Source of the DNA: a virus
DNA: 64,000 bases
Direction: 5' to 3' (one strand)
Virus record (IMG/VR): IMGVR_UViG_3300047554_000329
Coordinates: 28,925-92,924 of that record
Shown here in pieces: positions 32,083 to 54,765 of the stretch. The notes under the pieces were generated by a model. It did not search any database. It saw only the letters and a list, made by a program, of their open reading frames with translations, and had not been told where the DNA came from. The position numbers and the translations under genes are program-made. Position 1 is the stretch's first letter, and every line of letters begins with the position of its first letter.

Positions 32083-32110
32083 TAGAGCTGGGCATCTCTA
32101 CAAACTGCCC
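32083..32110 (+). ncRNA. Putative H-type pseudoknot, copy 1 (3' of SSB)
   Basis: TAGAG-CTGGGCAT-CTCTA-CAAAC-TGCCC; loop GGGCA pairs with TGCCC. Confidence 0.65.
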
Positions 32111-32142
32111 CACACAAACTTTTATTACTAGCGAAGGAAACA

Positions 32143-35100
32143 ATGAGCTACGCTCCACTTCACGTTCACACACACTATAGCCTATTCGATGGCATTGCTA
32201 CACCACAGGAGTACGTTGACCGTGCTGTGTCTGTGGGTATGACCTCTATCTCAATCACAGACCACGGTTCTCTATCTGGTCACCGTGAGATGTATCGTGC
32301 TGCCAAAGCAGCAGGTATCAAGCCAATCCTTGGAGTTGAAGGATATATCTGTAAAGACCGCTTTGACCACGAAGAAAAGGATAAGACAGACCTACTCAAC
32401 CTAAACTACAACCACCTTATCATTCTTGCCAAGAACAAGGTAGGTCTAGAAAACCTTAACAAGCTTAATGAGCTTGCCTGGACAGAGGGTTTCTTTAAGA
32501 AGCCTCGTATGGACTGGAGCATTCTAGAGCAATACAAAGAGGGTCTAGTCATTACTTCTGGATGTCTTTCAGGATTTCTTTGCAAGGCTATCGAAGCAGA
32601 CAACCTAGCAGTAGCCAAGGAACACATCAAGTGGGCTAAGGATACTTTTGGTGACGACTACTACATTGAAGTTATGCCACACAACCCTGCAGAAGTAAAC
32701 AAGATGCTACTTGACCTTGCAGATGAATTTGGTATCAAGCCTGTAATTACTCCAGACTGCCACCACGCAGACAAGTCACAGCGTGACATTCAAGAACTCA
32801 AGCTTATCCTAAACTCATACTCTAACAAAACTGAGAAAGAAGTAACTTTCGCTGGTACTCAGAAGTACGACAACCTTATGGACAAGCTAGACTACTTGTA
32901 TGGTGCAGACCGTCAGATGTCTTTCAAGAACTTTGAGATTCACCTATTGTCTGACGAAGAGATGCGTAACGCCATGCTTGCTCAGGGCATTGACCGTGAA
33001 GATATGTACCAGAACAGCAAGGACATTGCAGACCAGATTGAAGACTATGAGATTCAAGATAATCTAGATTTGCTTCCAGCACAGTATGTTAACCCAGACC
33101 AAGAGCTATATGAACTAGCGATTGAGGGGCTTACTAAGCGTGGACTACACACTAACCAGGAGTACCTAGACAGACTTGATGAAGAGCTTTCTGTTATCAA
33201 AGACAAGAAGTTTGGACCTTACTTCCTAGTTGTTCGTAATATGATTAACTGGGCTAAGAAAGAAGACATCATGGTAGGACCAGGACGTGGTTCTGCTGCG
33301 GGTTCACTGCTCTGCTATGCTCTTGGTATCACAGACGTAGACCCAATTCAGCATGGTCTTCTGTTCTTCCGATTCATTAACCCAGAGCGTAACGACTTCC
33401 CAGATATCGATACAGATATCCAGGACTCACGCCGAGAAGAGGTTAAGGACTACCTTGTTCGCCAATACCGTCACGTTGCATCTATTGCAACATTCCTTGA
33501 GTTCAAGGGCAAGGGTATTGTTCGTGACGTGGCTCGTGTTCTAAACATTCCGCTACCTGACGTTAACAAGGTTCTTAAGCTTGTAGACGACTGGGACGAG
33601 TACCTAACGTCTAAGTCAACAGCAGAGTTCCGTGAGAAGTATCCAGAGATTGAAGAGTATGGCGAGCAATTGCGTGGTCGTATTCGTGGTACTGGTATCC
33701 ACGCTGCAGGTGTTGTAACGTCTAAGGAGCCTATCTTTAAGTTCGCACCACTAGAAACACGTACCAGTCCTGGCAATAAGGAGCGTATCCCTGTTGTGGC
33801 GGTAGACATGGAAGAAGCAGAGCGTATCGGTCTGATTAAGATTGACGCACTTGGTCTAAAGACTCTATCCGTTATTCAGGACACGCTAAAGATTATTGAA
33901 GAGCGTACTAACGAGAAGATTGACCTACACAAGATTGACATGGAAGACAAAAAGGTTTACGCCATGTTGTCTGACGGATTCACCAAGGGCGTGTTCCAGT
34001 GTGAAGCCACACCATACACAAACCTGCTAGTTAAGATGGGTGTTAAAAACTTTAATGAGTTGGCTGCATCTAACGCTCTAGTTCGCCCAGGTGCTATGAA
34101 CACCATTGGTAAAGACTACATTGCTCGTAAGCATGGTAAGCAAAACCTAGACTACAAGCACGTCAACATGAAGAAGTTTACCGAAGAGACTTACGGATGT
34201 ATTCTTTATCAGGAACAAGTTATGCTTGCTTGTACTGAACTTGGTGGAATGACCATGGCAGAAGCTGACAAGGTTCGTAAGATTATTGGTAAGAAAAAGG
34301 ATGCTAAAGAGTTCAAGCAGTTCCAAGACAAGTTTGTTGAGGGTGCTTCACGCTTCCTATCTCCAAACGTTGCAGAAGACCTGTGGCACGACTTTGAGGC
34401 TCACGCAGGGTACTCGTTCAACAAGTCTCACGCTGTAGCATACTCAACGCTATCATACTGGACAGCATGGCTAAAGTATCACTATCCAATTGAGTTTATG
34501 TATTCATTGCTCAAGAACGAGGGCGACAAGGATGCTCGCACAGAGTACCTAATCGAAGCAAAGCGTATGGGTATTCCTATCCGTCTACCACACATCAACG
34601 ACTCAGACATTGACTTTACAATCGAAGGAAAGGGAATCCGCTTTGGACTTTCAGCAATCAAATACATTTCTGACAACATTGCTTCTAAGTATATTGCTGC
34701 TCGCCCTTTTAGCTCCTACAAACAACTTGAGGAGTTTAGTTTTGGCAAGGGCAATGGTGTTAATAGCCGTGCCTTGCAAGCTCTTCGTCTTATTGGTGCT
34801 GCAACTTTTGATGATAATCCTAGGAATGATGAAGAAGTTAAAGAAAATCTTTACGAATACCTAAACCTACCAGAGTTTAACGTATCGATTCCACAGCACT
34901 ACCACGCATTTATTAATGACGTAGAAGAGTATGAGGAAAAGGGTTCGTTTATCCTAATGGGTATGGTCAAGGGTATCAAGCGTGGCAAAGGTTGGTCACG
35001 AGTTGAGATTCTAGATAAGACTGGTAGTGTTGGCATCTTCGATGAAGAGCAGTCAACTATCGAAGCAGGTCGCACTTACATCTTGCTGGCAAGCGATAAC

Positions 35101-35418
35101 AGAATTGTTACTGCTATTCCAGCAGACGAGATTAAGGGAAACCAAACAGGATTGATTAAGATTCTAAACTTCCGTATGCTGCCATACAAAGAGGATGAAC
35201 TCTTTGTGGTATCATTCAAGCCACGAGTTACCAAGACAGGTAAGAAGATGGCTTCCCTAGTGCTAGCAGACGCTACACGGACGCTACACAGCGTTACAGT
35301 ATTCCCTACGGCTTTCTCCAAGGCTTATATGAAGATTGACGAGGGTAACGTATACAAATTCTCTTTGGGTAAAACTAAAGACGGAACAACAATTATGGAG
35401 GATGTATTTAATGTTTGA
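32143..35418 (+). CDS. dnaE: DNA polymerase III alpha subunit
   Basis: PHP domain HVHTHYS/TDHG, GRGSAAGS, PDIDTD, HAAG, KIDALGL, YSFNKSH; no intein apparent. Confidence 0.97.
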   Translation: MSYAPLHVHTHYSLFDGIATPQEYVDRAVSVGMTSISITDHGSLSGHREMYRAAKAAGIKPILGVEGYICKDRFDHEEKDKTDLLNLNYNHLIILAKNKVGLENLNKLNELAWTEGFFKKPRMDWSILEQYKEGLVITSGCLSGFLCKAIEADNLAVAKEHIKWAKDTFGDDYYIEVMPHNPAEVNKMLLDLADEFGIKPVITPDCHHADKSQRDIQELKLILNSYSNKTEKEVTFAGTQKYDNLMDKLDYLYGADRQMSFKNFEIHLLSDEEMRNAMLAQGIDREDMYQNSKDIADQIEDYEIQDNLDLLPAQYVNPDQELYELAIEGLTKRGLHTNQEYLDRLDEELSVIKDKKFGPYFLVVRNMINWAKKEDIMVGPGRGSAAGSLLCYALGITDVDPIQHGLLFFRFINPERNDFPDIDTDIQDSRREEVKDYLVRQYRHVASIATFLEFKGKGIVRDVARVLNIPLPDVNKVLKLVDDWDEYLTSKSTAEFREKYPEIEEYGEQLRGRIRGTGIHAAGVVTSKEPIFKFAPLETRTSPGNKERIPVVAVDMEEAERIGLIKIDALGLKTLSVIQDTLKIIEERTNEKIDLHKIDMEDKKVYAMLSDGFTKGVFQCEATPYTNLLVKMGVKNFNELAASNALVRPGAMNTIGKDYIARKHGKQNLDYKHVNMKKFTEETYGCILYQEQVMLACTELGGMTMAEADKVRKIIGKKKDAKEFKQFQDKFVEGASRFLSPNVAEDLWHDFEAHAGYSFNKSHAVAYSTLSYWTAWLKYHYPIEFMYSLLKNEGDKDARTEYLIEAKRMGIPIRLPHINDSDIDFTIEGKGIRFGLSAIKYISDNIASKYIAARPFSSYKQLEEFSFGKGNGVNSRALQALRLIGAATFDDNPRNDEEVKENLYEYLNLPEFNVSIPQHYHAFINDVEEYEEKGSFILMGMVKGIKRGKGWSRVEILDKTGSVGIFDEEQSTIEAGRTYILLASDNRIVTAIPADEIKGNQTGLIKILNFRMLPYKEDELFVVSFKPRVTKTGKKMASLVLADATRTLHSVTVFPTAFSKAYMKIDEGNVYKFSLGKTKDGTTIMEDVFNV

Positions 35419-35746
35419 TGAAGTATCGCAACACCTGCACGAGGTTGCAGTAGAAAAAGGTTTCTGGGATGTGATTAAAGATGCTCCGCAAGAGCAGGTA
35501 GACATCTTTATGACCAAGCAACTGATGATGATTGTATCAGAGGCTACAGAGGTTATGGAGGCTATTCGTAAGTCACACGGTCCAGAGGCAGTAGCAGACG
35601 AGGTGGCAGATATTCTTATCCGCACACTTGACCTGTACGCAGGATTGCTTGAGCACGAATACACAAACGTATCACTTGACGAAGCATTTGAAAAGAAGAC
35701 TGCTTTTAACAAGTCACGACCACAGAAGCATGGGGTAAAGTTTTAA
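35411..35746 (+). CDS. MazG-like nucleotide pyrophosphohydrolase
   Basis: SEATEVMEAIRK..DEVADILIR motif. Confidence 0.85.
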   Translation: MFDEVSQHLHEVAVEKGFWDVIKDAPQEQVDIFMTKQLMMIVSEATEVMEAIRKSHGPEAVADEVADILIRTLDLYAGLLEHEYTNVSLDEAFEKKTAFNKSRPQKHGVKF

Positions 35747-36756
35747 TGACAACCATGGAAGAAGCTCTAGCATTGCTAGACCCAAAGATTAGAAAGCGTC
35801 TAACTAACGGTGTGGGCTTTACTACAACGTTCCAGAAGACCCCTAGCTATGGTCTAAACCGTGCTCTTAATGGTGGATTGCCATATGGTCGTCAGGTGCT
35901 TATCTGGGGCAGCAAGTCGTCTGCAAAGTCGTCTCTCTGCCTACAGATGATTGCCCTGGCTCAAGAAGAGGGTAAGCTCTGTGCCTGGATTGATGCTGAG
36001 ATGTCTTACTCAGAGGACTGGGCTAAGAAGCTTGGGGTAGACACAGACAACCTAATCGTATCACAGGCTCGTACCATCAATGAGATGGTAGATGTTGGCA
36101 CTGCTCTAATGAACGCAGGTGTGGACCTGATTGTTATTGACTCAATCACCTCGCTACTACCAGCAATCTACTTTGAAAAGGGAACAGATGAACTTAAGGA
36201 ACTTGAAAACACTAAGCAAATCGGTGCTGAGTCAAGAGACTTTAGCAACGCTTGGAAGATGCTTAACTACGCTAATAACAAAGTTAAGCCTACTATGCTT
36301 GTCCTTATTAGCCAGTCTAGGAATAATATTTCTGCTATGTATACTTCTCAGCAGCCTAGCGGTGGTCAAGCTACTAAGTTTTATTCATCGACGGTTATCA
36401 AGCTATTCAGTTCCGAATCAGACAATCAGGCTATTAAGGGAAAAATTGCTGTTGGAGATAAACTCATTGAGGAAAAGGTTGGACGCAAAGTTCGTTGGGA
36501 AGTCCAGTTCTCCAAGACATCGCCAGCCTTCCAGTCTGGGGAGTACGATTTTTATTTCCGTGGGGACGTTGGTGTTGATAGCATCGGTGACCTCGTGGAT
36601 ACTGCAGAAATGATGGGTATTGTAAGTCGTACAGGAGCCTGGTACATCCTACCAGATGGCTCTAAGCTGCAGGGTAGAGAAGCATTTGTGAATCGTGTTC
36701 GTGAAGACCTAGACTTGCAAGACTCTATTAAGGCACAGGTCAATGGCGAAGTATAA
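35746..36756 (+). CDS. recA: RecA-like recombinase
   Basis: GGLPYGR, variant Walker A GSKSSAKS, WIDAE, VIDSI, GGQATKFYSS, GAWY. Confidence 0.93.
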   Translation: MTTMEEALALLDPKIRKRLTNGVGFTTTFQKTPSYGLNRALNGGLPYGRQVLIWGSKSSAKSSLCLQMIALAQEEGKLCAWIDAEMSYSEDWAKKLGVDTDNLIVSQARTINEMVDVGTALMNAGVDLIVIDSITSLLPAIYFEKGTDELKELENTKQIGAESRDFSNAWKMLNYANNKVKPTMLVLISQSRNNISAMYTSQQPSGGQATKFYSSTVIKLFSSESDNQAIKGKIAVGDKLIEEKVGRKVRWEVQFSKTSPAFQSGEYDFYFRGDVGVDSIGDLVDTAEMMGIVSRTGAWYILPDGSKLQGREAFVNRVREDLDLQDSIKAQVNGEV

Positions 36757-36928
36757 CATCTACACAGGTAAGTTTGTTTGCCACACCTGCAAGGCTGAGG
36801 TAAAGAGCCTACGCTCTTATCCAAGCACTAAAGAGCTAACATGGATGTGTCCTGAAAAGCACGTCAGCGTAGTTAGTTTTGCAAAGAAAAAGAGAAAGGG
36901 AGACTTTGAGCGAGAAGAGCGAGAGTAA
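36743..36928 (+). CDS. Small zinc-binding protein
   Basis: CHTC..CPEKH. Confidence 0.55.
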   Translation: MAKYNIYTGKFVCHTCKAEVKSLRSYPSTKELTWMCPEKHVSVVSFAKKKRKGDFEREERE

Positions 36929-37193
36929 GCGTATCGGTGCTAAACAGCACAAGAACTCTGGTCGTGGAACTCATAAAGGCGATGCCTCTTGGGAAAACTT
37001 TACAGTTGACTTCAAAGAGGTTGGCAAGTCATTTACTCTAAACAAAGAGGTATGGGCTAAAGCTGTTACGGATGCTATCCGTAATGGCAATGACCCTGCT
37101 ATTGTGGTAGTACTTGGAGATTCAGGTATCAAGACAAGATTAGCGGTAATAGAACTCTCCCTACTTGAACAAATACTGTCTGATAGTGTATAA
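36906..37193 (+). CDS. PD-(D/E)xK nuclease / Holliday-resolvase-like protein
   Basis: NSG..KGD..VDFK motif. Confidence 0.65.
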   Translation: MSEKSESKRIGAKQHKNSGRGTHKGDASWENFTVDFKEVGKSFTLNKEVWAKAVTDAIRNGNDPAIVVVLGDSGIKTRLAVIELSLLEQILSDSV

Positions 37194-37220
37194 TAGAAGT
37201 ACAACGATTAAGGAATTAAC

Positions 37221-37526
37221 TTGGAAGAAGTAAAAACAACGATTGAACAAGTCAATGGTTTGGTAGAGATTGCTGAATACATGGAAGACGAAGAGTTGAC
37301 CACAGCACTTACATTCATTGCAAAACTAATTATCAAACCAGACATTCCACTGAATGTTGCAACCGTGGAGATTGTACGCTTGCAAGCAATTGCAGCTAAG
37401 ATGTCCTTCAAAGCCACATGGCTAACTAACGTAGATAAAGGAGACAGAGCGAAAAAGAATATTTATTACACCGCTGCAGAGGCTATTAACAACCTCGTAT
37501 CGGCTCTTAAATATATCACTCGCTAG
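37221..37526 (+). CDS. Hypothetical protein
   Basis: TTG start with SD AAGGA; promoter TATAAT near 37189. Confidence 0.65.
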   Translation: MEEVKTTIEQVNGLVEIAEYMEDEELTTALTFIAKLIIKPDIPLNVATVEIVRLQAIAAKMSFKATWLTNVDKGDRAKKNIYYTAAEAINNLVSALKYITR

Positions 37527-37534
37527 TGTTGATT

Positions 37535-38335
37535 ATGGCAAAAAGTTTATTGCAACAAGTAATGCTCAAGGTAGAAGACAAGGTGGCATCAAAGCCATCC
37601 TTTCTTGACAAAGAAGCCTTGATAGAAAAGATTCAGCACGGATACATTGTAAATCGTGTTGATAAGTTTCAAACTAAGAAAACATTTGCACCTAGCACGA
37701 TTGCATTCTCGCATGGAGAGTGTCCTCGTTACTGGTATCTAGCCTTTGAGGGTGCTGTGTTTACTGACAATGCAGATGCCTATGGCGGAGCAAACATGAC
37801 TGCTGGTACAAAGTCACATGAGCGTATCCAGGAAGCTATGGGCAACGCAGGTATCCTAAAGGACTCTGAGTTCAAGGTCACTTATGACGACCCACCAATC
37901 TTTGGATATGGTGACGTTATTCTTGACTGGGAAGGTATGGACCTGCTTGGTGAAATCAAGACCATGCCTAACGAAGGCTTTGAGTATCGCAAGATTGCAG
38001 GTAAGCCAAAGACTGGACACCTTATCCAGTTGCTTATCTATATGAAGATTCTTAACAGAAGCAAAGCAATTCTGATTTATGAAAACAAGAACAATCACGA
38101 GTTGCTAATCTTCCCTGTTGAGTTGAATGAATACTATTTTAAGTGGGTAGAGAACGCTTTTGAGTGGATGAGAAATGTTCGAAAGGCTTGGGAAGACAAG
38201 ACCCTGCCAGAGAAAAACTATCGCTCAAATTCTAAAATTTGTAAGACCTGTCCTATTAAGGATGCGTGTAACAATGCTGGTTCTGGAGTGATTAAAATCA
38301 AATCTCTGGAGCCATTGGATGATAAAGCATTGTGA
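37535..38335 (+). CDS. Cas4-like (PD-(D/E)xK, Fe-S) exonuclease
   Basis: CPR..GTKSHE..D..EIKT..QLLIY..CKTCPIKDAC. Confidence 0.85.
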   Translation: MAKSLLQQVMLKVEDKVASKPSFLDKEALIEKIQHGYIVNRVDKFQTKKTFAPSTIAFSHGECPRYWYLAFEGAVFTDNADAYGGANMTAGTKSHERIQEAMGNAGILKDSEFKVTYDDPPIFGYGDVILDWEGMDLLGEIKTMPNEGFEYRKIAGKPKTGHLIQLLIYMKILNRSKAILIYENKNNHELLIFPVELNEYYFKWVENAFEWMRNVRKAWEDKTLPEKNYRSNSKICKTCPIKDACNNAGSGVIKIKSLEPLDDKAL

Positions 38336-38609
38336 TTGGTGTGACAACAAGTTCACACAAAAAGTAAAGTATCAGATTTACTGTTCTGCAGACTGTAGGG
38401 CGTTAGCAACCAAAGAAAAGATTGCTCAACGCTACATACAGGAGAGAACAAAAAAGAGGGCATTGGTAAAGAGGTTCTGCAAGTCTTGTGGTAATCTCTT
38501 GTCAATGTATAATGATACTCAGTTGTGTGAGCTTTGTGATGTTAATCCAAGCGATGTTTCTAAAGCACTCAAAGATATAAAGAGGATGCTCAACGATGAA
38601 TCTAAGTAA
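38319..38609 (+). CDS. Cys-rich zinc-finger protein
   Basis: CDWC, YCSADC, CKSC, CELC. Confidence 0.7.
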   Translation: MIKHCDWCDNKFTQKVKYQIYCSADCRALATKEKIAQRYIQERTKKRALVKRFCKSCGNLLSMYNDTQLCELCDVNPSDVSKALKDIKRMLNDESK

Positions 38610-39171
38610 GCTAAAAGAAAAACCAAAGAAGTTCTGTGCTATTGATGCTAGTACAAATAGCCTGGCATTTGCAGTGTTTGATGGCAAAAAGATTATTGCC
38701 TGTGGCAAGATTAACTTTGCTGGCGTTACAACATTTGACAAGGTAATGGATGCTGCTAAGAAGACAAAAGCCTTCTTTGATAAGTTTGATTTTGATGCAG
38801 TCATTATTGAGCACACGGTATTTATGAACAGCCCTAAGACAGCAGCACAGCTTGCTACGCTGCAGGGAGCATTGCTAGGGGCTGCAGGAATGGCTGGGGT
38901 AAAGAGAATCGGTTCCGTATCTCCAATGACCTGGCAGAACTTTATTGGTAATAAGAAACTAACTAAAGAAGAAAAGGCAGAGATTGCTAAGAAGAATCCT
39001 GGCAAGTCTGTGTCTTGGTTTAAGAATGAAGAACGCTCCATTCGTAAACAGAGAACGATTAACTTTGTTAACATAAACTATGACAAAGAACTAACAGATG
39101 ATGATGTTGCAGATGCCTGTGCAATCGGACACTGGGCATTGTCAAACTGGGAAAAGGCATTTGGGTATTGA
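38596..39171 (+). CDS. ruvC: RuvC-like Holliday junction resolvase
   Basis: AIDAST, IIE, DDVADACAI catalytic motifs. Confidence 0.82.
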   Translation: MNLSKLKEKPKKFCAIDASTNSLAFAVFDGKKIIACGKINFAGVTTFDKVMDAAKKTKAFFDKFDFDAVIIEHTVFMNSPKTAAQLATLQGALLGAAGMAGVKRIGSVSPMTWQNFIGNKKLTKEEKAEIAKKNPGKSVSWFKNEERSIRKQRTINFVNINYDKELTDDDVADACAIGHWALSNWEKAFGY

Positions 39172-39175
39172 CATC

Positions 39176-39331
39176 ATGGCGAATAAGCTGTATACTAATG
39201 AGATGTGGTTACGCAAACGTTTCCACGTAGACAAGAAGACACCACAGGAAATTGCAAAAGAATGCGGTACTAGCGTAGAAACTATCTACGTCTATCTAGC
39301 CAAGTTCGGATTAAGGAAGTCAAAAAGGTGA
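39176..39331 (+). CDS. Small HTH protein
   Basis: TPQEIAKECGTSVETIYVYLAKFGL. Confidence 0.75.
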   Translation: MANKLYTNEMWLRKRFHVDKKTPQEIAKECGTSVETIYVYLAKFGLRKSKR

Positions 39332-44793: not shown

Positions 44794-44794
44794 C

Positions 44795-44974: not shown

Positions 44975-44975
44975 T

Positions 44976-45248: not shown

Positions 45249-45256
45249 TCTCCTAG

Positions 45257-45285: not shown

Positions 45286-45313
45286 GTATATACAACCTAG
45301 AGAGGGTTTTCTT

Positions 45314-45850: not shown

Positions 45851-45859
45851 TAGATATAT

Positions 45860-45931
45860 TGACCATTAGCTCAACGGCAGAGCAGAGAGCTGTTAACTCT
45901 AAGGTTCCTGGTTCGAATCCAGGATGGTCAG
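45860..45931 (+). tRNA. tRNA-Asn(GTT)
   Basis: Cloverleaf TGACCAT/ATGGTCA; anticodon loop CTGTTAA; GGTTCGAATCC; no encoded CCA. Confidence 0.93.
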
Positions 45932-46096
45932 CGATGATAGATAATCACTATCACAACCGTTTCATTTCGGACAAATGAACGCTCTTACAGCGACACAGTA
46001 AGCGTGTAGGAATCTCTCGTTATCGGTTCGGAGTTGGTCACTCGTCTTAGGAAACGACCCACGAGGTGTGGACCTGATTAGTCTGACACCTCAACT

Positions 46097-46167
46097 GCGA
46101 ATATAGTTTAGTGGTAAAACTTCTGCCTTCCAAGCAGATTATGGGAGTTCGATTCTCCCTATTCGCT
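46097..46167 (+). tRNA. tRNA-Gly(TCC)
   Basis: GCGAATA/TATTCGC; anticodon arm TCTGC-CTTCCAA-GCAGA; GTTCGATTC. Confidence 0.92.
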
Positions 46168-46245
46168 CTCCGTGTTATGAGGCTGTTCCGTATGGTTCAA
46201 CTATCGCACTCATACAGGCTGTCACAAAGTCAGCCCACGGTATTT

Positions 46246-46319
46246 GGCTTCATAGCTCAGTTGGTTAGAGCACCACCCTGTCACGGTGGGGGTCGTGGGT
46301 TCAAGTCCCATTGGAGTCG
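46246..46319 (+). tRNA. tRNA-Asp(GTC)
   Basis: Anticodon arm CCACC-CTGTCAC-GGTGG; GGTTCAAGTCC. Confidence 0.93.
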
Positions 46320-46416
46320 CTGGGCGATATCCTTCGGGATATTTACTGTCAGGCTCGTATCCTGATAGTGCTATTGATGCAGGTATGAAATAAGGCTCCT
46401 GTAGGTGATAGCAATT

Positions 46417-46489
46417 GCCACCTTAGCTCATTCGGTAGAGCAACGCACTTGTAATGCGTAGGTGGTGGGTTCGAATCCCACAGGTGGCT
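46417..46489 (+). tRNA. tRNA-Thr(TGT)
   Basis: GCCACCT/AGGTGGC; anticodon arm ACGCA-CTTGTAA-TGCGT. Confidence 0.93.
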
Positions 46490-46532
46490 CTATTATACTA
46501 ATGTATAATAAAAATAAGGAGGTCATTTAATT

Positions 46533-47359: not shown

Positions 47360-47578
47360 TTGGTAGATGTTAAAGAGTGGTCGCTCACAGGACTAGACCG
47401 CTGTGATTCTTGCGGAGCACAAGCTTATGTTCATGTCAAGGGTATCTCAGGGGAACTAATGTTCTGTGGGCATCACTTTAACAAAGCAAACGGAGAAAAA
47501 CTACAAGCATTTGCATTTGAGATTATCGATGAACGTGACCGTTTAATCGAAAATAAATCTCAAGGTGACGATTACTAG
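47360..47578 (+). CDS. Small actinobacterial-type zinc protein
   Basis: LTGLDRCDSCGAQAYV..LMFCGHH. Confidence 0.7.
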   Translation: MVDVKEWSLTGLDRCDSCGAQAYVHVKGISGELMFCGHHFNKANGEKLQAFAFEIIDERDRLIENKSQGDDY

Positions 47579-47602
47579 TAGTATAATTATATTAGGTGAC
47601 AA

Positions 47603-48025
47603 ATGGAATACTTTCTTGGCTCGTTGATTACTTTACTAATCATGTCTTACTTTGGTAAGCAAACTGCCAAAAGCATTTCAAAGCCTATAAAACAATTACA
47701 GTACTCGCAAGCTTACATCGATAATCTTCTATCAGAAAAGATTGTTGAAGAATTCTTGCCAGAGCCAATTCAAGTAAAAACTCAAGCCACAGAACACTTC
47801 AGGAAAGATGAAGTGAGAGTAATTATTATTGAGAATGAGGCTTACTGGATTGTTGACCAAACTCTCTACATGGCTACTATAGTTGACGGAACTGTTGACA
47901 ATGACACAACAAAAAAGGTTGACACAATGACCATGGATGATGTACAATTAGAAAAGACCCAATTTATCGTCCAGAAACTAACGGAAGGAAAAGGAAATGA
48001 TAGTGGCTATCCACGGAAGTCGTAG
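47603..48025 (+). CDS. Hypothetical protein with N-terminal membrane anchor
   Basis: Hydrophobic N-terminus. Confidence 0.6.
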   Translation: MEYFLGSLITLLIMSYFGKQTAKSISKPIKQLQYSQAYIDNLLSEKIVEEFLPEPIQVKTQATEHFRKDEVRVIIIENEAYWIVDQTLYMATIVDGTVDNDTTKKVDTMTMDDVQLEKTQFIVQKLTEGKGNDSGYPRKS

Positions 48026-48347
48026 CTTTACTGACTACAACATTTTCTTAAGAGCAATGCATACAGCATTGACACAACTCCCAGAAGACGACAAGATGAT
48101 TACAATTATGTCTGCTGGTCCTGCCCAGATTAATTCATTTGGTCAGGAGTTCTCAAATATTACAGAGCGTAGTCTAAAAGCTCGTGGTATTAAAATTAAG
48201 ATTGTTAAGATTCCACCTAGTTGGATTAAAGAAAATATGCATGATATTGATTACTTTGCATACTTTAGCAAACCCAAAGAAGCCTTGCCAGACTTGGTAG
48301 ACTTGGCGGATGCTAAAGACATTGAAGTTGGAGTCTACCGATTCTAA
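47997..48347 (+). CDS. YspA/SLOG-like protein
   Basis: N-terminal IVAIHGSRSFTDY motif. Confidence 0.5.
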   Translation: MIVAIHGSRSFTDYNIFLRAMHTALTQLPEDDKMITIMSAGPAQINSFGQEFSNITERSLKARGIKIKIVKIPPSWIKENMHDIDYFAYFSKPKEALPDLVDLADAKDIEVGVYRF

Positions 48348-48373
48348 TGGTTAATAAGAGATAAGGAGTGATT

Positions 48374-48601
48374 ATGATTATCAAATCACTTAATGAGATG
48401 GAAGCTATCGTAGAAGATAACGATGCTCTATCGTGGAATGGCTGGACAGTAATCGAAAGCGATTCTAAAACAGATGGATACATCAATAAGCTTGGTGCGT
48501 TTGTCAATGGCAATTGGATTGTGCAGAAGCGTTATGAGCCAGGAGCCAGCGGTTGGGACATCCCAAAACGATTGGTGGTAAAGAATGGCTCACAAGGATG
48601 A
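48374..48601 (+). CDS. Hypothetical protein
   Basis: SD AAGGAG; ORF. Confidence 0.6.
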   Translation: MIIKSLNEMEAIVEDNDALSWNGWTVIESDSKTDGYINKLGAFVNGNWIVQKRYEPGASGWDIPKRLVVKNGSQG

Positions 48602-48875
48602 ATGGAAAGAAGAAGCCTTTTGTCTGGACTTCGACACCAATCTCTTCTTTGACAAGTACGAGGAAGACCTTGAACTAAGACCAGCAATTGACGAGATGTG
48701 CTCCATGTGTCCAGTAGCTAAGATGTGTTTCGCTGTTGGTATCTCTAACAAAGAATATGGTGTCTGGGGCGGTGTCTATCTAGATGCTGGTAAAATATCC
48801 AGAGAGTTTAATAGACATAAGTCAAAGGCTGACTGGGCTAACACCTGGCAAAATCTAACTATCGAACAGGAATAA
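48585..48875 (+). CDS. whiB: WhiB family Fe-S transcription factor
   Basis: C..LFF..CSMCPVAKMC..YGVWGG. Confidence 0.9.
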   Translation: MAHKDEWKEEAFCLDFDTNLFFDKYEEDLELRPAIDEMCSMCPVAKMCFAVGISNKEYGVWGGVYLDAGKISREFNRHKSKADWANTWQNLTIEQE

Positions 48876-48878
48876 ATT

Positions 48879-49121
48879 ATGTATACATTGGAAATGAAGC
48901 GAGCGTTTCACTCAATCACTCCGCCACCAAACTTTGAGGTTCAGCTTTTTGAACACAATGTTGAGGGTATGTTCTTCATTGAGATTGTGGCAGATGAAAA
49001 GAAATTCATTAGACTACTTGACGAAGAAAAGCGTGGTGCTGTAGAGTACATGATACGAGTCAAAGATGCTTTGGAACGTAATGGAGCCATTGTTCAGATA
49101 ACTAGAAGGGCAGTAGAATGA
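48879..49121 (+). CDS. Hypothetical protein
   Basis: ORF. Confidence 0.6.
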   Translation: MYTLEMKRAFHSITPPPNFEVQLFEHNVEGMFFIEIVADEKKFIRLLDEEKRGAVEYMIRVKDALERNGAIVQITRRAVE

Positions 49122-49555
49122 TTGATGTTATTGTTACTAGTATTGTCTATGCATTGCTAACTTTGTTCATAGCCTATCTTGGTTTTAAGAATGTTGTTCT
49201 ACGACGCAAAGTAAACGATGCTATTGCAGACCAGCTACAGGTAACTATTAACCTTAATATCGTTAGGTCTGAGTTAGGAAAAGCCTTACAAGAGATTGAG
49301 AACATGAAGCTAGAAAAGTCTGATGACTTTGTTAAGTTTCTTTCTGATTCTCGTGACTGGGCATTTACTTACATTGAAGATGCTCAGGATAAAATATCTG
49401 AGTTTGATAAGCAGATTCAGGAAATCGCAGAGTGGAACAGGACCTATGGTTCTGTAGTTGGAGATACTCCACACAGCTCTAAGATTGAAGAAATAAATTT
49501 GGCATACGACAAGATTAGAAGTCTTTTGCCAGAAAATAAAACGCCTAACAACTAG
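49118..49555 (+). CDS. Membrane-anchored coiled-coil protein
   Basis: N-terminal TM helix, then coiled coil. Confidence 0.6.
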   Translation: MIDVIVTSIVYALLTLFIAYLGFKNVVLRRKVNDAIADQLQVTINLNIVRSELGKALQEIENMKLEKSDDFVKFLSDSRDWAFTYIEDAQDKISEFDKQIQEIAEWNRTYGSVVGDTPHSSKIEEINLAYDKIRSLLPENKTPNN

Positions 49556-49575
49556 GCATAAACAAGGAGAATAAA

Positions 49576-49884
49576 ATGAATAAGGCAATGATTGAATCAT
49601 ACCTTCGTAACCTGCTGGGTGTAGTCCTTGCACTGGTTACAACCACAATGGCAAACAAGGGTCTCGCTTCACCACTTGACTTCAGTGTAGGCGACTGGCT
49701 AACTGTTGCTAACGGTCTATGGGCTGCTGCAGTTCCAACGCTTCTTCGTTGGGTAAACGCAAAGGACCCAGCCTTTGGTAGAATTGCAGAGGTTGCTGCT
49801 GCAGAGGTAAGCAAGAAAATTGCTACTGCTGCCAAGGAAGCTCCTGCAAAGGCTCCTGCAAAGAAAGCTGCTCCAAAGAAGTAG
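49576..49884 (+). CDS. Putative holin
   Basis: ESYLRNLLGVVLAL..AAAVPTLLRWVNAKDPAFG; two TM segments; basic PAKK tail. Confidence 0.6.
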   Translation: MNKAMIESYLRNLLGVVLALVTTTMANKGLASPLDFSVGDWLTVANGLWAAAVPTLLRWVNAKDPAFGRIAEVAAAEVSKKIATAAKEAPAKAPAKKAAPKK

Positions 49885-49891
49885 CATAAAT

Positions 49892-49929
49892 AAAAAGATA
49901 GCCAGGGTGTTTGCCCTGGCTTTTCTTTT
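49892..49929. terminator. Bidirectional terminator between convergent operons
   Basis: AAAAAG..GCCAGGG-TGTTTG-CCCTGGC-TTTTCTTTT. Confidence 0.8.
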
Positions 49930-50962
49930 ATTCAATTATAGATAAGTATTTATCTTTTAATACATCTGGTGAGAATGTGCTGTATCCTACATCAAATGCT
50001 TTTGCCTTTTGTTCTGCAATGTTTGTATGCTCCATATACATATCAACTAGTTTAGCCAATTCTGCTGGGTCTGTTTCATAAAGCTCTACAGGACCTTTAA
50101 ACTCTACTCTACCAGCATATTCAGCCCTTACAAGCCATTCTTTTGGAAGGATGTGATTGTTTGGGGATATATCTGTCATAATGACTGGCAGTCCACTCAA
50201 CAACGCTTCGTTCATTGGTAGGCATAGTCCACCATATTTTCTAGGTAGAACCATGAGGTCAAAGCCAGAATAAAGTTCTGCCCTGTTGTCTGGATTACTG
50301 TTGTCAATAGTTAGTCTTGGGTCGTCACAGTCTGGCTCATAGTCACCCTGAACCTTAACGACAAGCTCGTAGTCTGCTTTAGAATACTTAAGCATCTCTA
50401 CAACAATGTCTGTTCCATTTCTATCGCTATTGGCTCTCTTGCCAGCAATGTGAAGAATCCTTTTGTGCTTTTTTGCTAGGTTAACTTCTTTGGCTTCTGA
50501 AAAAATTTCTGGTGTGGTTGGCGGTGGTAAGTAGACAAGGTTTGTAGCATGACCATAAGCCTTCTCCATAATGTCTATATTCCATACGCTAGGAGCAACC
50601 AATACGCTAGGAAGCCTCATTCCATCTACAACAAAATACTCAAAGAACTCATAGTTGTATTGTAGGATAGTTTTAATTCCACGTCTATGTGCTAAAGCAG
50701 ACAGTCTTTTATTGTAAAAAATTTCACAACTGATTAGCACGTCAATTCCACTAAGAAAATCATTTACCTCCATGTTAGAAATAAAACCAGCCTGAGTTGT
50801 CTTGACATCATACCCATCATACCATTCTGGATACTGCTTGTTGCCATTAAAGTGAGAAGAGTCAATTAGCAAAATTTTGTCTGGCTGCAACATATCCACC
50901 AATTCTTTTGTTTGGTTGCCAAGTCCAGTTTTGTCTGCTCTTGCGATAATACCTAGTCTCAT
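49928..50962 (-). CDS. Glycosyltransferase (GT-B, GT4-like)
   Basis: DLMVLPRKYGGLCLPMNEALLSGLPVIMTD. Confidence 0.85.
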   Translation of the reverse strand: MRLGIIARADKTGLGNQTKELVDMLQPDKILLIDSSHFNGNKQYPEWYDGYDVKTTQAGFISNMEVNDFLSGIDVLISCEIFYNKRLSALAHRRGIKTILQYNYEFFEYFVVDGMRLPSVLVAPSVWNIDIMEKAYGHATNLVYLPPPTTPEIFSEAKEVNLAKKHKRILHIAGKRANSDRNGTDIVVEMLKYSKADYELVVKVQGDYEPDCDDPRLTIDNSNPDNRAELYSGFDLMVLPRKYGGLCLPMNEALLSGLPVIMTDISPNNHILPKEWLVRAEYAGRVEFKGPVELYETDPAELAKLVDMYMEHTNIAEQKAKAFDVGYSTFSPDVLKDKYLSIIE

Positions 50963-51732
50963 ACCTGAGTCAACCCCCAGGCATCATCATCTCCAGTAAA
51001 CTTTCTCAAGCCATTACGACCATCCAAGTGATATGAACGTTTGTTGTTTGTTTTGCTTGGGTAGTAAATCCAAAGCTTGTGCTCGTTCCATCCATCTCTA
51101 GTTCCGTGCTTACGCCACGGTACAATGTAAGCTTCATAAATAAGACTGTGAAGAACATCTTCAATAAATGTTCTATCTGGAAGACGTGGAATAATTTCAT
51201 TCTTGTAGTAAGATACCTTTGTTAGGTGTGGTCTTTGGCTCCACTGGTAAGTCTGCAAGAAGCCATCTTCAAGTTCAAGCATAAGCCAGTCATGTACATC
51301 TGGGACCTTTGCTTCGTGATAAAAACGAATTGTATTGGCTCTACCAGACTCAATCATACGAATACAAGCCTCCCAGTTGATGTGCTCGTCTGTAACTAGT
51401 GGAGCATCTCCCTCTACATAAAGCATAAGTGGTGTCTTTACTAAATCAATAGTTTTCTTAATCATTGTGCTTTGATGTGAGTATTCATCAAAAATAATTG
51501 GCAGAACGTTTGTATATTCGTGAAGACACTTCCAAAGAATCCTATTCTTGTATTCATCGTAGTCAGCTTTGCGGTGTGACTGCTCTTCTCTTAGTCCATC
51601 AATCTGTAGAATGATTTCGCTATCAGGTAGATGATGCCTAATGCTTTTAATAGTCTCGTCAACAATGTGTGTATCTGGGTGACTAGGTATGACAGAGGTT
51701 ACAACTATAACCGTTATGTCTTTTTTATCCAT
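50959..51732 (-). CDS. Putative glycosyltransferase (GT-A-like)
   Basis: ITVIVVTS..ETIKSI..EIILQIDG..LYVEGD; operon context. Confidence 0.6.
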   Translation of the reverse strand: MDKKDITVIVVTSVIPSHPDTHIVDETIKSIRHHLPDSEIILQIDGLREEQSHRKADYDEYKNRILWKCLHEYTNVLPIIFDEYSHQSTMIKKTIDLVKTPLMLYVEGDAPLVTDEHINWEACIRMIESGRANTIRFYHEAKVPDVHDWLMLELEDGFLQTYQWSQRPHLTKVSYYKNEIIPRLPDRTFIEDVLHSLIYEAYIVPWRKHGTRDGWNEHKLWIYYPSKTNNKRSYHLDGRNGLRKFTGDDDAWGLTQV

Positions 51733-52582
51733 TTAATTGCTCCATAATCTTATATGCAAAGTCTCTCTTATACTTAATCCACCAGCTGACAGTCCTGTGC
51801 ATATTAGCAGGATAGTCAACTAAAACATCAGAAACAATGCCGTTTAGTTTGTTCCAGTCATTGGTTTTTGGGACAGGCGTTTGTTGTTCAAAAACAAAAT
51901 CCCAAAAGTTATACTCTTCATTCTTAGAACTCTTTAGGTCTGCAATTGGCAATGCCAGCATCTCTAGAGCTTCATAGAATCTGAATGAGTCTATTGTATC
52001 ACTACCAGCAGGTGATGGAACAATCTTAGACTCAAGGAGGTGGGTAAAATATTCTTTAGGCTTGTAGCCCTGCGTAAATCCAGGGGTAGGGTTAAACAAA
52101 GCCCCAGGAACTTTAGGCATAGCCTCTGCAAGCTCCTTACGCCTATCGTGAGTAATCTGACCAGAGAAGAATACATCATTCTTTTTGTCTGTATAGTTTG
52201 GTAGATTATCTCTCATATGCGATGGACAGCCAATTGGCATCTTATAAAACTGTCCATGTCTATCTGGATATGGAGACTGAATCCAAATCTTAATGTCTGG
52301 ATGCTTAATCTTGTCAGCCATAAATGAACCAGTCTCATCTCCAGTAACAAATAAAACAACCTTCTTAATCTTGTTTAGTTCGTCAGATACTTTGGTTGGG
52401 ATACGTTTGTTTTCGAATCCGCAGATAACCACAAAGGCTTTATCTACTTCTGGTAGCTCAGTTGCCTCAAGATAGTCAACATTGTTTCTTTCAAAGGCTT
52501 CTTTTAGAAAACCAAAGTCCCACTTGTGGTCTGGAAAACTCTTGCCATCTAAAGCAAGCAGGTATGCCTTAATATTACTCAT
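51725..52582 (-). CDS. Exostosin/GT47-like glycosyltransferase
   Basis: VFFSGQ..SKIVPSPAG..DSFRFYEALEMLALPI. Confidence 0.65.
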   Translation of the reverse strand: MSNIKAYLLALDGKSFPDHKWDFGFLKEAFERNNVDYLEATELPEVDKAFVVICGFENKRIPTKVSDELNKIKKVVLFVTGDETGSFMADKIKHPDIKIWIQSPYPDRHGQFYKMPIGCPSHMRDNLPNYTDKKNDVFFSGQITHDRRKELAEAMPKVPGALFNPTPGFTQGYKPKEYFTHLLESKIVPSPAGSDTIDSFRFYEALEMLALPIADLKSSKNEEYNFWDFVFEQQTPVPKTNDWNKLNGIVSDVLVDYPANMHRTVSWWIKYKRDFAYKIMEQLNG

Positions 52583-53285
52583 AATAAAGGTGTGCCTCGT
52601 GCTGGTAGTCAATCAATGTTTCTTTATATCCAAACTCATCTCTGAGCCAGTAACGAAGTTCTGCAAGATACTTTCCGTATTGATGAAACATAAACTCTGG
52701 GTGACCAGATAGCCAAATCTTTGGCTTGTAGTTTTTGAGAACATGGTATGCTCCACCAAGAACTTTCCACTCGCTACCCTCTACGTCAATTGTGATGGCG
52801 GTAGGTGGCTTAATACCATGGTCATAGACACAAGAGTCAATAGTAACCTGACCATAGTTATCTCCCTCAAGATAAAGCTCTTTGAATCCATGTGCTGCCT
52901 CAATCTTTTGACTAGCTTCTGGTGGAAATTCATTTTTATAAATCCTAGCAAGCTTATTAATTTGGTCAGAGGCAAATGCAGGAATACAGGCTAACGGAAG
53001 CTCTAAGTTGTTTGCTTCCCAAATTGCTGGCATATGAGACCAAACCTTTGGATTAGGCTCAAATAGAACTACTTCTGCTCCCCAAATTTGACAAAGAGCA
53101 GACATCTCACCTTCTTCAGCACCAACATAATAAACAACATCGCCCTTACCAAGACCGTCATGCATAGACTTTAGTCTAGGCTTTTCCCAGCCTTTTTCTG
53201 TATACCACTCTGGTCTATCTGCTCTGTGCTTTGGCAGCATCATTTCCCATTCTCCATTGAGAACAGCCTTTACCATCTCGGTCAT
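52575..53285 (-). CDS. FkbM-family methyltransferase
   Basis: DVVYYVGAEEG, VLFEPNP, IDVEGSEWKVLGGA. Confidence 0.85.
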   Translation of the reverse strand: MTEMVKAVLNGEWEMMLPKHRADRPEWYTEKGWEKPRLKSMHDGLGKGDVVYYVGAEEGEMSALCQIWGAEVVLFEPNPKVWSHMPAIWEANNLELPLACIPAFASDQINKLARIYKNEFPPEASQKIEAAHGFKELYLEGDNYGQVTIDSCVYDHGIKPPTAITIDVEGSEWKVLGGAYHVLKNYKPKIWLSGHPEFMFHQYGKYLAELRYWLRDEFGYKETLIDYQHEAHLYYE

Positions 53286-54244
53286 AGTCCTAGCTCCTTT
53301 AGAATTGTTACCCATCTATGCTTGTATGTGTGTTCTGCCCTGGCTCTATTATGACCAGCAATTCTGATTGACTCTCGCTCTTCATCATTAACAAGATAGT
53401 AATCAATCTTTGCTTTTAGGTCTTGCAAGTTACCGTGCTCATAAAATACAATCTCTTTACCATCTTCAAAGTAATCGTCTAGTCCTATAATACGAGGGTA
53501 GATGGTAAATCCACCACGACCAGTAGACTCAAACAGTCTATCGCTAGTGTAGTATGGATAGTTAAAGTTTAGGTTTAGGGTATCACCAATGGCAATCTTG
53601 CTTTTAGCATAAATTTTATTTAGCTCTTCCCCACGCACAGTTCCAGTATCTCCGTCTCCACCAACGTGTAAGAAGCGAGAGCCATAAGTTTCTCTAAGGA
53701 AGTCAATCAGTTCTGGGCGGTAAGGATATTCGTGATGATATCTTTTGCTACCAACAAATATAACGTCGTAATCAAAATTATTTTTATCGTAAGACTTGTC
53801 TAGGTAACACTCTGGTCCATAAACTCCTGCGGTAAGGAAGTGACCCTTAACATTGGTATTCTCATTAAACCAATCAGCCATAAGCTTGTCTACAGTGAAA
53901 AAATGTCCAATAGTTTTGTAAAAATTGTCTTGCTCTAAGTCTTTTTGGCGGTCTAGACCAAACCAAAGGTCAAGGTGATAGGTCATTGTTGGAATGCCAT
54001 GCTCGTGAAACTTTTCAAGAATGTGGTCCATCGAATAGTTTCCAGGAGTTTCCCATCCATGAGTGTGTACCCAAATAAATAGGTCAGCGTTGAATGCAAC
54101 GGTCCTTCTATAAATTTTATCTGACGGCATGATGCGTTCTTGCATCTTCATTACCTTGTGTCCCAATGCCTCTAGGCTTTTTACGTGATGGTTTTCACTG
54201 CTGTATGGCACTTCAAAGTTGCCTAAAAATACTATGTTAGCCAA
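53282..54244 (-). CDS. Glycosyltransferase (CgeB/Glyco_trans_1_2-like)
   Basis: DVIFVGS, YAKSKIAIG, SDRLFE..G.GGF, RESIRIAG..AEHTYKHR. Confidence 0.85.
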   Translation of the reverse strand: MANIVFLGNFEVPYSSENHHVKSLEALGHKVMKMQERIMPSDKIYRRTVAFNADLFIWVHTHGWETPGNYSMDHILEKFHEHGIPTMTYHLDLWFGLDRQKDLEQDNFYKTIGHFFTVDKLMADWFNENTNVKGHFLTAGVYGPECYLDKSYDKNNFDYDVIFVGSKRYHHEYPYRPELIDFLRETYGSRFLHVGGDGDTGTVRGEELNKIYAKSKIAIGDTLNLNFNYPYYTSDRLFESTGRGGFTIYPRIIGLDDYFEDGKEIVFYEHGNLQDLKAKIDYYLVNDEERESIRIAGHNRARAEHTYKHRWVTILKELGL

Positions 54245-54273
54245 TTATTTTTCCTTACTACTAGCCAAATCAA

Positions 54274-54290
54274 TTATACCATGCTATAAT
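54274..54290. promoter_or_regulatory. Back-to-back extended -10 promoters (GT operon / hsp20)
   Basis: ATTATACCA (TGGTATAAT on minus strand) adjacent to TGCTATAAT on plus strand. Confidence 0.7.
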
Positions 54291-54295
54291 GGTTA

Positions 54296-54336
54296 TGTAC
54301 CTGCCATTTGGGGGTACACAACTCGCTTAATAGGAG
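54296..54336 (+). promoter_or_regulatory. ROSE-like RNA thermometer candidate in hsp20 5' UTR
   Basis: CTCGCT-TAAT-AGGAG: U(U/C)GCU pairs the SD with a bulged G; an upstream GTACC/GGTAC hairpin. Confidence 0.55.
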
Positions 54337-54345
54337 ATGATATAT

Positions 54346-54732
54346 ATGGTTATTACAACCAACCCATTCGAAGCACTTGGTCTAGATATTGACAAGTTCT
54401 TCCAAACAACAAATGCCCCAGCATTCCCACCATACAACGTTGTCAAAGTTAATGACGACAAGCTAGTTATGGAATTTGCGGTAGCTGGCTTCAAGAAAAG
54501 TGATATCTCTATCACTACTGAAAAGAATGTTCTAACAGTAAAAGCAGACAAGGGAACTGACGAAAAGGTTTATGCCTATAAGGGCATTGCTGCTCGTAAG
54601 TTTACTCGTGCCTTTACTCTACCAGAATATTTTGAAGTAAACGATGCGTGGTTTGAAGACGGAATTCTTTTTATTGACTTGGTTCGTAATGTTCCAGAAG
54701 AAAAGAAGCCAAAACAAATCACAATTAAATAG
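54346..54732 (+). CDS. Small heat-shock protein Hsp20 (IbpA-like)
   Basis: FPPYNV, AVAGF, YKGIAARKFTRAFTL, FEDGILFIDL, PEEKKPKQITI. Confidence 0.93.
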   Translation: MVITTNPFEALGLDIDKFFQTTNAPAFPPYNVVKVNDDKLVMEFAVAGFKKSDISITTEKNVLTVKADKGTDEKVYAYKGIAARKFTRAFTLPEYFEVNDAWFEDGILFIDLVRNVPEEKKPKQITIK

Positions 54733-54737
54733 TCATA

Positions 54738-54765
54738 AACTCCTGGGTATGAGTTGAAACTGCCC
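54738..54765 (+). ncRNA. Putative H-type pseudoknot, copy 2 (3' of hsp20)
   Basis: AACTC-CTGGGTAT-GAGTT-GAAAC-TGCCC. Confidence 0.65.

Follow-up and report, generated by a model that had tools for sequence, protein, structure and literature searches.

The 64,000-nucleotide stretch of virus DNA studied here (positions 28,925 to 92,924 of IMG/VR record IMGVR_UViG_3300047554_000329; hereafter the window) contains two 28-nt elements, one directly behind an SSB gene and one directly behind an Hsp20 gene. What kind of RNA do these elements encode, and what is it for? A first-pass annotation, made from the letters of the window, had proposed that both fold into the same small H-type pseudoknot. The comparisons described below indicate that the compact pseudoknot is real, that it occurs widely, and that it has so far gone undescribed; it is predicted to act in cis in mRNA, and the surroundings in which it occurs suggest a function.

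Two Copies of a Pseudoknot Follow Stop Codons in the Window

Reading of the sequence confirmed two elements of identical geometry, starting at positions 32083 and 54738 (Table 1). In each, a 5-bp stem (P1) encloses an 8-nt loop, and five bases of this loop can pair with the last five bases of the element to give a second stem (P2). In copy 2 the P2 pairing includes a U-G wobble. Copy 1 is separated by a 4-nt spacer from the SSB stop codon TAA (32076-32078) and copy 2 by a 5-nt spacer from the Hsp20 stop codon TAG (54730-54732), as had been claimed. The identities given earlier to the SSB and Hsp20 genes, and to a RuvC-like gene discussed below, were borne out by family matches. A U-tract terminator was looked for 3′ of the two copies and was found at neither, also in line with the first-pass annotation. 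A 14-base core pattern had exactly two exact matches in the window, and matches with two or three mismatches were at chance level (13 observed versus 11.2 expected).

Both Helices Covary

An exact-pattern scan of IMG/VR returned at least 120 stretches, and 125 pattern matches, including three from the window's own genome, were examined. The gap was 6 nt long in 104 of the 125 matches, where an even spread over gaps of 4-7 nt would be expected by chance. Among 97 distinct copies the inner three P1 pairs were paired in 96, 97, and 97 cases, with CG, GC, UA, and AU all occurring at these positions, and the outer two in 65 and 40 cases. The P1 covariation score was reached by none of 500 shuffles. 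Stem 1 thus changes in sequence while its pairing is kept, as the comparison of the two window copies had suggested.

The 97-copy set held P2 fixed by design, and so the fetched loci were rescanned with a fuzzy scan and a model encoding P1 only. In an ungapped alignment of 77 distinct copies P2 was 98.7% paired. Double changes were present at four of the five P2 pairs, three of them without any unpaired cell, and comprised GC to AU (16 times), GC to CG (5 times), and CG to UA (5 times). Sliding the P2 partner by 1-3 columns reduced pairing to 31-44%. Matched variants of loop and tail were CTGAGYAT with AAACTGCTC, CTGGACAT with AAACTGTCC, CTGGCCAT with AAACTGGCC, CTGGGTAT with AAACTACCC, CTAGGYAT with AAACTGCCT, and CTTGGYAT with AAACTGCCA. 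The proposed pairing of loop and tail is therefore upheld by compensatory changes. Positions C8, U9, A14, and A22 are invariant, and A23, A24, and C25 are conserved at 90% or above. P2 contains U-G wobbles in 28 of the 77 copies, and these wobbles, together with strict co-orientation with the upstream open reading frame (ORF), indicate an RNA on the sense strand.

The commonest P1 is GUC/GAC, with the consensus GTC-loop-GAC-nTn-AAAC-TGCCC. Nested minimum free energy (MFE) folding picks P2 alone, with unremarkable z-scores of -0.9 and -0.5. Since a nested folding program is blind to a pseudoknot, the case for the fold is a comparative one. On this comparative evidence the elements are shown to belong to a family of H-type RNA pseudoknots in which both helices covary. 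Its form, shown in the same way, is a P1 of 3-5 bp; an 8-nt loop made up of C-U, the 5-nt P2 strand, and U or A; a third loop (L3) of one to three variable bases followed by AAAC; and the 5-nt P2 partner, usually followed by A.

Table 1. Coordinates of the pseudoknot copies and associated features. Positions are those of the window unless a whole-genome (G000) or locus (L) prefix is given.
Feature	Position	Strand	Details
Pseudoknot copy 1	32083-32110	+	TAGAG-CTGGGCAT-CTCTA-CAAAC-TGCCC; covariance model E=2.6e-13
Copy 1 P1	32083-32087 with 32096-32100	+	
Copy 1 loop	32088-32095		L1 = CU; P2 5′ strand GGGCA at 32090-32094; L2 = U
Copy 1 L3	32101-32105		CAAAC
Copy 1 P2 3′ strand	32106-32110		TGCCC
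Pseudoknot copy 2	54738-54765	+	AACTC-CTGGGTAT-GAGTT-GAAAC-TGCCC; covariance model E=1.4e-14
Copy 2 P1	54738-54742 with 54751-54755		
Copy 2 loop	54743-54750		CTGGGTAT
Copy 2 L3	54756-54760		GAAAC
Copy 2 P2 3′ strand	54761-54765		TGCCC
Three further full copies	G000 7189-7215, 5677-5704, 4479-4504	-	Near left end of genome (locus L242, G000 3500-8000)
SSB gene	31413-32078	+	221 aa; phrog_9721, E=1.5e-44
Hsp20 gene	54337-54732	+	131 aa; PF00011, E=1.7e-17
DnaE-like DNA polymerase III alpha gene	32143-35418	+	Pfam PHP, DNA_pol3_alpha, and finger domains
Promoter-like site	31352-31381	+	Just 5′ of SSB; promoter-gene-pseudoknot unit
Promoter-like site	54262-54290	+	Just 5′ of Hsp20; promoter-gene-pseudoknot unit
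Promoter-like site	54754-54782	+	TTGAAA-17-TGnTATAAT; 11/12 consensus matches
Hairpin-only look-alike	39128-39149	+	GACA-CTGGGCAT-TGTC-AAACTG; within RuvC-like ORF
RuvC-like ORF	38596-39171		phrog_159
Micro-ORF example	L127:4607-4681	-	
Micro-ORF example	L200:7257-7310	-	

Further Copies in the Same Genome

The source of the window is a 92,924-bp IMG/VR virus with direct terminal repeats. The whole genome holds five full copies of the pseudoknot, three of them outside the window, and the core pattern matched it four times as compared with no matches for a reversed control. One of the three minus-strand copies is preceded by a 55-aa ORF. Another, preceded by a 174-aa ORF, has the loop CTGACCAT and the tail AAACTGGTC, in which three of the five P2 pairs are altered and all are compensated. 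The third is preceded by a DUF932 protein (PF06067, E=8e-53) and ends 4 nt 5′ of a tRNA-Gln gene. The genes upstream of the five copies are accordingly those for SSB, Hsp20, and DUF932 and two small ORFs.

A partial copy had also been described near the end of the RuvC-like gene. Its letters are as described, but it lies within the RuvC-like ORF and its tail reads TGGGA instead of TGCCC, so that stem 2 cannot form. It was not reported by the covariance model at E≤0.1 and was rejected as a member of the family.

Novelty and Distribution of the Family

A search of the window with Rfam 15 at the gathering score found only tRNAs, and a search of positions 32060-32150, around copy 1, found nothing relevant at E≤10. 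Among 18 bacterial loci searched at the gathering score there was likewise no match at the pseudoknot. The earlier failure to assign the element to a known RNA family was therefore borne out. Text searches of the literature, with the letters of the motif and for phage pseudoknots or exoribonuclease-resistant RNAs (xrRNAs) in connection with RNase J, found no description of the motif. One Omnitrophota contig that carries the pseudoknot also carries a fluoride riboswitch (RF01734, 54.6 bits, L143:3395-3460, minus strand), which is probably unrelated.

The first-pass annotation had called for further copies with stem covariation. Such copies were found in IMG/VR, and the motif is present in GTDB genomes as well. 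A GTDB scan for the commonest stem version (GTC/GAC) returned 113 bacterial or archaeal contigs. The carriers are mostly metagenome-assembled genomes of Desulfobacterota, Omnitrophota, Saccharibacteria, Bacillota, Planctomycetota, Chloroflexota, and others, with a few archaeal bins; Pseudomonadota account for only 2 of 80 GTDB titles listed. Carrier genomes span more than 15 phyla. Cultured carriers are the Corynebacterium phages phi673 and phi674, Lactobacillus phage phiEF-1.1, Nostoc phage NMeng1, and Moorella phage MTATph1, whose hosts are Actinobacteria, Firmicutes, and Cyanobacteria. A blastn search with one 34-nt copy gave no convincing match among 28 Gb of E. coli genomes or among PLSDB plasmids; as P1 differs between copies, this negative is a weak one. 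The sole marginal E. coli match to this query was a 26-nt segment with 88.5% identity in a hypothetical gene of plasmid NZ_CP100991.1 (21873-21898). Several bacterial contigs (L126, L217, L209, L232, and L190) have tandem pseudoknots 1-7 nt apart, an arrangement that recalls tandem xrRNAs.

The bacterial copies have a companion of their own. In 77 of 114 bacterial copies (loci L125-L237) the fold is closely preceded or overlapped by the end of a conserved micro-ORF of 16-25 aa. It has the form M-x-R-(F/Y)-M-(I/L)-(P/R)-(R/P)-V-A-H-C-x-(E/D)-G-(C/H), for example R-P-V-A-H-C-K-E-G-C, and variation at third codon positions shows that it is coding. A TTGACA promoter with the palindromic operator TGATAC-n5-GTATCA lies 5′ of the micro-ORF, and genes for Rrf2 regulators, YHS and hemerythrin proteins, copper-ATPases, and multicopper oxidases lie 3′ of it. 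The peptide had no match in NCBIfam. It may be a metal/redox leader peptide or a small metallopeptide.

The Fold Is Placed Relative to the Upstream Stop Codon

For the position statistics of the phage copies the upstream ORF was taken as the nearest same-strand ORF of at least 60 aa. Its end lies 4-9 nt 5′ of P1 in 74 of 134 copies and within 20 nt in 90. By comparison, the distance from the fold to the next start in phage loci ranges from 1 to over 800 nt. In the window, the DnaE-like gene begins 32 nt past copy 1. Where copies could be classified with ORFs of at least 100 aa (n=90), 75 lay between co-directional genes and 7 at convergent ends. The recurrent upstream proteins (n=90) are Hsp20 (12), DUF932 (8), SSBs of three PHROG families (about 8), major head proteins (4), and HTH_39 proteins (4). 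About 9% of copies lie 3-13 nt 5′ of a tRNA gene. A mimic of an RNase P substrate or tRNA acceptor was dropped on the predicted geometry, since the 5′ and 3′ ends of the fold would lie at opposite ends of the coaxial stack.

A fixed distance to a stop codon brings recoding to mind, with the fold stimulating stop read-through or frameshifting at the end of the upstream gene. The 4-9 nt spacing is that of known recoding pseudoknots, and the architecture is like that of the -1 frameshift pseudoknots of luteoviruses and enamoviruses (beet western yellows virus, BWYV; pea enation mosaic virus-1, PEMV-1; sugarcane yellow leaf virus, ScYLV), which are about 28 nt long with a P2 of 3 bp. The likeness includes a 2-nt L1 starting with C, a 1-nt junction, an A-rich L3 able to lie in the P1 minor groove, and a position 5-9 nt from the ribosomal A-site codon. 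However, the A-site codon here is a stop, mostly UAA, the P2 has 5 bp rather than 3, and there is neither an overlapping -1 ORF nor a slippery sequence, a slippery heptamer being present in only 2 of 83 copies. The stops before the fold are UAA in 66%, UAG in 23%, and UGA in 10% of cases, compared with a background of 48, 20, and 32%; UAA is thus enriched and UGA depleted, and tandem stops occur. After the stop, the median open frame in all three frames is only 7-12 codons. The distance from stop to loop alternates between 9 nt (27 copies) and 10 nt (24 copies), so that no reading frame through the fold is conserved. The stop-codon, open-frame, and heptamer tests largely refute a recoding signal, and we regard this as the least credible of the explanations considered.

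The region 3′ of the fold bears on a second possibility, that the element is a transcriptional signal such as an RNA polymerase pause, a factor-dependent terminator, or an attenuator that ends a short, highly expressed unit. Layouts in which promoter, gene, pseudoknot, and a new promoter follow one another are found in the window and elsewhere, and the bacterial order of promoter, micro-ORF, pseudoknot, and regulated gene is compatible with it. The 5-10 nt following P2 are G-poor and C-rich, with G making up 5% at +2 to +5 as compared with 22% overall. This tail is, however, far too short for a Rho loading site. The base directly after P2 is A in 63% of copies and there is no U-run consensus; most copies lack a U-tract, and a terminator-like site within 80 nt downstream follows 9.2% of copies versus 7.9% of control ORF ends. 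Many copies, moreover, lie within polycistronic runs with the next start 20-40 nt away. A transcriptional signal is, in our judgment, improbable. An intrinsic terminator was rejected on the A at +1, the missing U-run, and the lack of a terminator-like site at either window copy, and the suggestion of a termination element in the first-pass annotation drew no support from U-tracts or terminator statistics.

Promoters are, by contrast, more frequent than in controls. An extended -10 box (TGnTAnAAT) follows 10.7% of copies and 2.9% of controls, a 3.7-fold difference, and 11 of the 14 boxes lie 1-14 nt past the fold, which implies that in these cases the fold belongs to the upstream transcript. 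At the third promoter-like site of the window (54754-54782) the -35 box consists of the P1 3′ strand and L3 of copy 2, and if this promoter is real the transcript of the next gene would begin 3′ of copy 2. The overlap with a -35 box, and the recurrence of gene-plus-element units across diverged phages, could point to an element that acts as DNA, be it part of a promoter or operator, a recombination hotspot, the boundary of a mobile cassette, or a hairpin in single-stranded DNA. Against this, the distance to the -10 box varies between 1 and 14 nt, the element is always oriented along the transcribed strand of the upstream ORF, and covariation keeps intramolecular pairing that includes G-U wobbles, which would be A-C mismatches on the other strand. 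A role at the DNA level is very improbable. Two specific versions were rejected, a sigma-70 promoter reading of the conserved blocks on the variable -10 spacing and a sigma-54 reading because the spacing of GG to GC is wrong, as judged from the sequence.

A Candidate Cap at the 3′ End of the Upstream Cistron

The context shows a bias toward UAA, upstream genes that are highly expressed, promoters downstream, junctions with tRNAs, and copies at convergent ends, and taken as a whole it is best fitted by a cap or barrier that serves the upstream cistron. We favor, with some reserve, a barrier that caps the 3′ end of this cistron, a proposal drawn from the context statistics.

Studies of ribosome helicase activity and frameshifting place the entry of mRNA into the ribosome near +11 to +13, counted from the first P-site nucleotide. 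With a stop codon in the A site and a spacer of 4-6 nt, the first base of P1 comes to lie at about the same distance. The fold would then stand right at the leading edge of the ribosome as this terminates at the upstream stop. Such a ribosome would never need to unwind the fold, and no unprotected RNA would remain between the translated cistron and the fold. Groove triples formed by the adenines of L3 and the C-U of L1 may stabilize the small structure. It could in this way act as a protein-independent mechanical barrier against 3′ to 5′ exonucleases after downstream cleavage, tRNA processing, or read-through, and at tRNA junctions RNase P would leave the fold as the 3′ terminus. Strongly expressed genes (SSB, Hsp20, DUF932, capsid, and micro-ORFs) would as a result outlast their downstream neighbors.

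Structures that stabilize or process 3′ ends are known from repetitive extragenic palindromic (REP) hairpins, the RNase III sites of T7 early genes, and the "retroregulator" terminator of the B. thuringiensis cry gene. Like the pseudoknot, these stand just past the stops of strongly expressed cistrons in polycistronic or read-through transcripts, and differential stability of the upstream segment is expected in both cases. They differ in being simple or long hairpins without a conserved loop-tail pseudoknot and in having a narrow host range each, whereas the 28-nt fold is conserved in sequence across phyla and is placed to the nucleotide relative to the stop. Among the functions that had been suggested for the elements, the candidate that best fits the context statistics is that of a 3′ stabilizer of abundant mRNAs.

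Several points weigh against a 3′ barrier. Plain hairpins are enough to block 3′ exonucleases in known systems, which makes the need for a conserved pseudoknot less than obvious. The canonical intrinsic terminator that follows 9% of copies, which is the control rate, would already protect the 3′ end. Of the 77 bacterial copies with a micro-ORF, 48 have their stop codon within the fold itself (as the TGA of CAUGAC), and there the ribosome must unwind it; these copies complicate a pure 3′-cap model and hint at a regulatory use. The stem expected to be reinforced by a triplex (P1 with L3) faces the 5′ side, which by analogy is the design of frameshift pseudoknots and of xrRNAs that resist 5′ to 3′ motors. 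Recognition by a protein or ligand could account equally well for the invariant unpaired bases.

Seven unpaired bases that stay invariant while both helices covary mean that this 28-nt RNA must do something general, all the more so given its occurrence in phages of Actinobacteria, Firmicutes, and Cyanobacteria and in genomes of more than 15 phyla. Should it truly block nucleases or ribosomes, no element of this sort would have been described before in bacteria or phages; it would then account for the way in which phages adjust the expression of adjacent genes without terminators, and would provide a very small, portable part with which to stabilize or insulate synthetic mRNAs. Since the fold is placed with single-nucleotide precision at the front of the terminating ribosome, the idea can be put to a direct test, and cultured carriers exist.

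Resemblance to Coremin

The main rival to a 3′ barrier is a coremin-like roadblock to motors that move 5′ to 3′, namely RNase J-type exonucleases, post-termination or read-through ribosomes, or Rho. It would shield or insulate the downstream RNA or uncouple the translation of neighboring cistrons. The cultured carriers infect Actinobacteria, Firmicutes, and Cyanobacteria, and none was found in E. coli genomes with the query used, a distribution that speaks for such a roadblock, as does the presence of P1 and the A-rich L3 on the 5′ side. Flaviviral xrRNAs reportedly also block bacterial RNase J1.

Coremin (xrRNA-C) and its Watson-Crick variant xrRNA-WCC occur in beny-, cucumo-, and other eukaryotic RNA viruses and stall Xrn1 and scanning ribosomes (Dilweg and Olsthoorn; PMC10520033, PMC10321173). 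The core of the pseudoknot resembles both coremin, GUC-CGAA-GAC-GUUAAAC-UAC, and the Watson-Crick variant (PMC10520033, PMC10321173). The two share a short hairpin of 3-4 bp, which is GUC/GAC in coremin and most commonly here, a loop starting with a pyrimidine, a pseudoknot topology, and an intergenic or 3′ untranslated location. In both, a spacer of the nUUAAAC type (nnnAAAC before the P2 strand in the phage family) is followed by the loop partner, and the phage consensus agreed with GUCCGAAGACGUUAAACUAC when the two were compared. Coremin also tolerates longer loops of 6-8 nt (PMC10520033, PMC10321173). The second base of the phage loop CUGGGYAU is nevertheless an invariant U, which agrees with neither YGAD nor YGNNAD, and P2 is here a full 5-bp covarying Watson-Crick helix. 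Coremin needs a second hairpin (hp2) for Xrn1 resistance (PMC10520033, PMC10321173), and a hairpin of this kind downstream of the phage copies was absent, the mean MFE of the following 35 nt being -3.5 kcal/mol as compared with -2.9 kcal/mol for shuffles. Only the phage family is anchored to a stop codon, and the bacterial hosts have no Xrn1. With matching hairpin and spacer but a different loop consensus and no hp2, the element is a structural analogue of coremin and not a member of its class.

The position of the fold also argues against a roadblock, being fixed to the upstream stop rather than to a downstream start or a 5′ end. The next gene is often separated from the fold by a promoter, and copies at convergent ends have no downstream gene to protect. 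We consider a 5′ to 3′ roadblock rather unlikely. A broader proposal is, to us, possible but doubtful. According to it the family would be a prokaryotic counterpart of xrRNAs, a protein-independent and direction-selective block with a core related to coremin. Phages across phyla would use it to punctuate polycistronic mRNAs, stopping exonucleases (RNase J, PNPase, and RNase R) and stray ribosomes and so setting the relative dosage of neighboring genes, and bacteria would have recruited the fold behind a Cys/His micro-ORF in metal/redox operons.

A Possible Binding Site for a Ligand or Protein

Near-invariant unpaired positions (C8, U9, A14, A22-A24, and C25) beside freely covarying helices are typical of aptamers, and copy 1 lies between the genes for SSB and DNA polymerase. 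The fold might accordingly be a ligand aptamer with a topology like that of preQ1-I, or the site of a conserved phage or host protein, for example a translational operator of the T4 gp32/gp43 type. An Rfam match was lacking even at E=10, and the genes downstream of the fold are heterogeneous, including those for DnaE, a TUDOR-domain protein, tRNAs, and Rrf2. The distance to the next Shine-Dalgarno (SD) sequence or start varies, promoters intervene, and no expression platform overlaps the fold. The very different phages and more than 15 phyla that carry it have no phage protein evident in common. These observations leave a binding site with little probability.

The likeness to preQ1-I (RF00522), which the first-pass annotation had pointed out, extends to topology only. 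Each is a small H-type pseudoknot whose P1 has 5 bp, whose tail is rich in A, and whose 3′ end forms a short P2. The conserved bases differ, the model gave no match at E≤10, queuosine genes are not found downstream, the SD sequence is not overlapped, and a promoter often precedes the next gene. Membership of the preQ1-I class was rejected on the covariance model and on the missing queuosine context.

Other Features of the Window

Six tRNA genes (Asn, Gly, Asp, Thr, Glu, and Arg) were found in the window at 45860-46490, 56233-56305, and 58326-58399, four of them in a single cluster; none of the six is a suppressor tRNA. The gene that follows copy 2 (54795-55964) encodes a C-terminal Hva1_TUDOR domain (PF11160), and a segment near the minus-strand copies (L242:3725-3889, minus strand) falls under the same entry. 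The DNA of the DnaE-like gene is 63-72% identical to that of Streptomyces phages of roughly 130 kb (Francob, Karp, Comrade, and others). Despite this Streptomyces-phage-like DnaE, the G+C content of the window phage is only about 42%.

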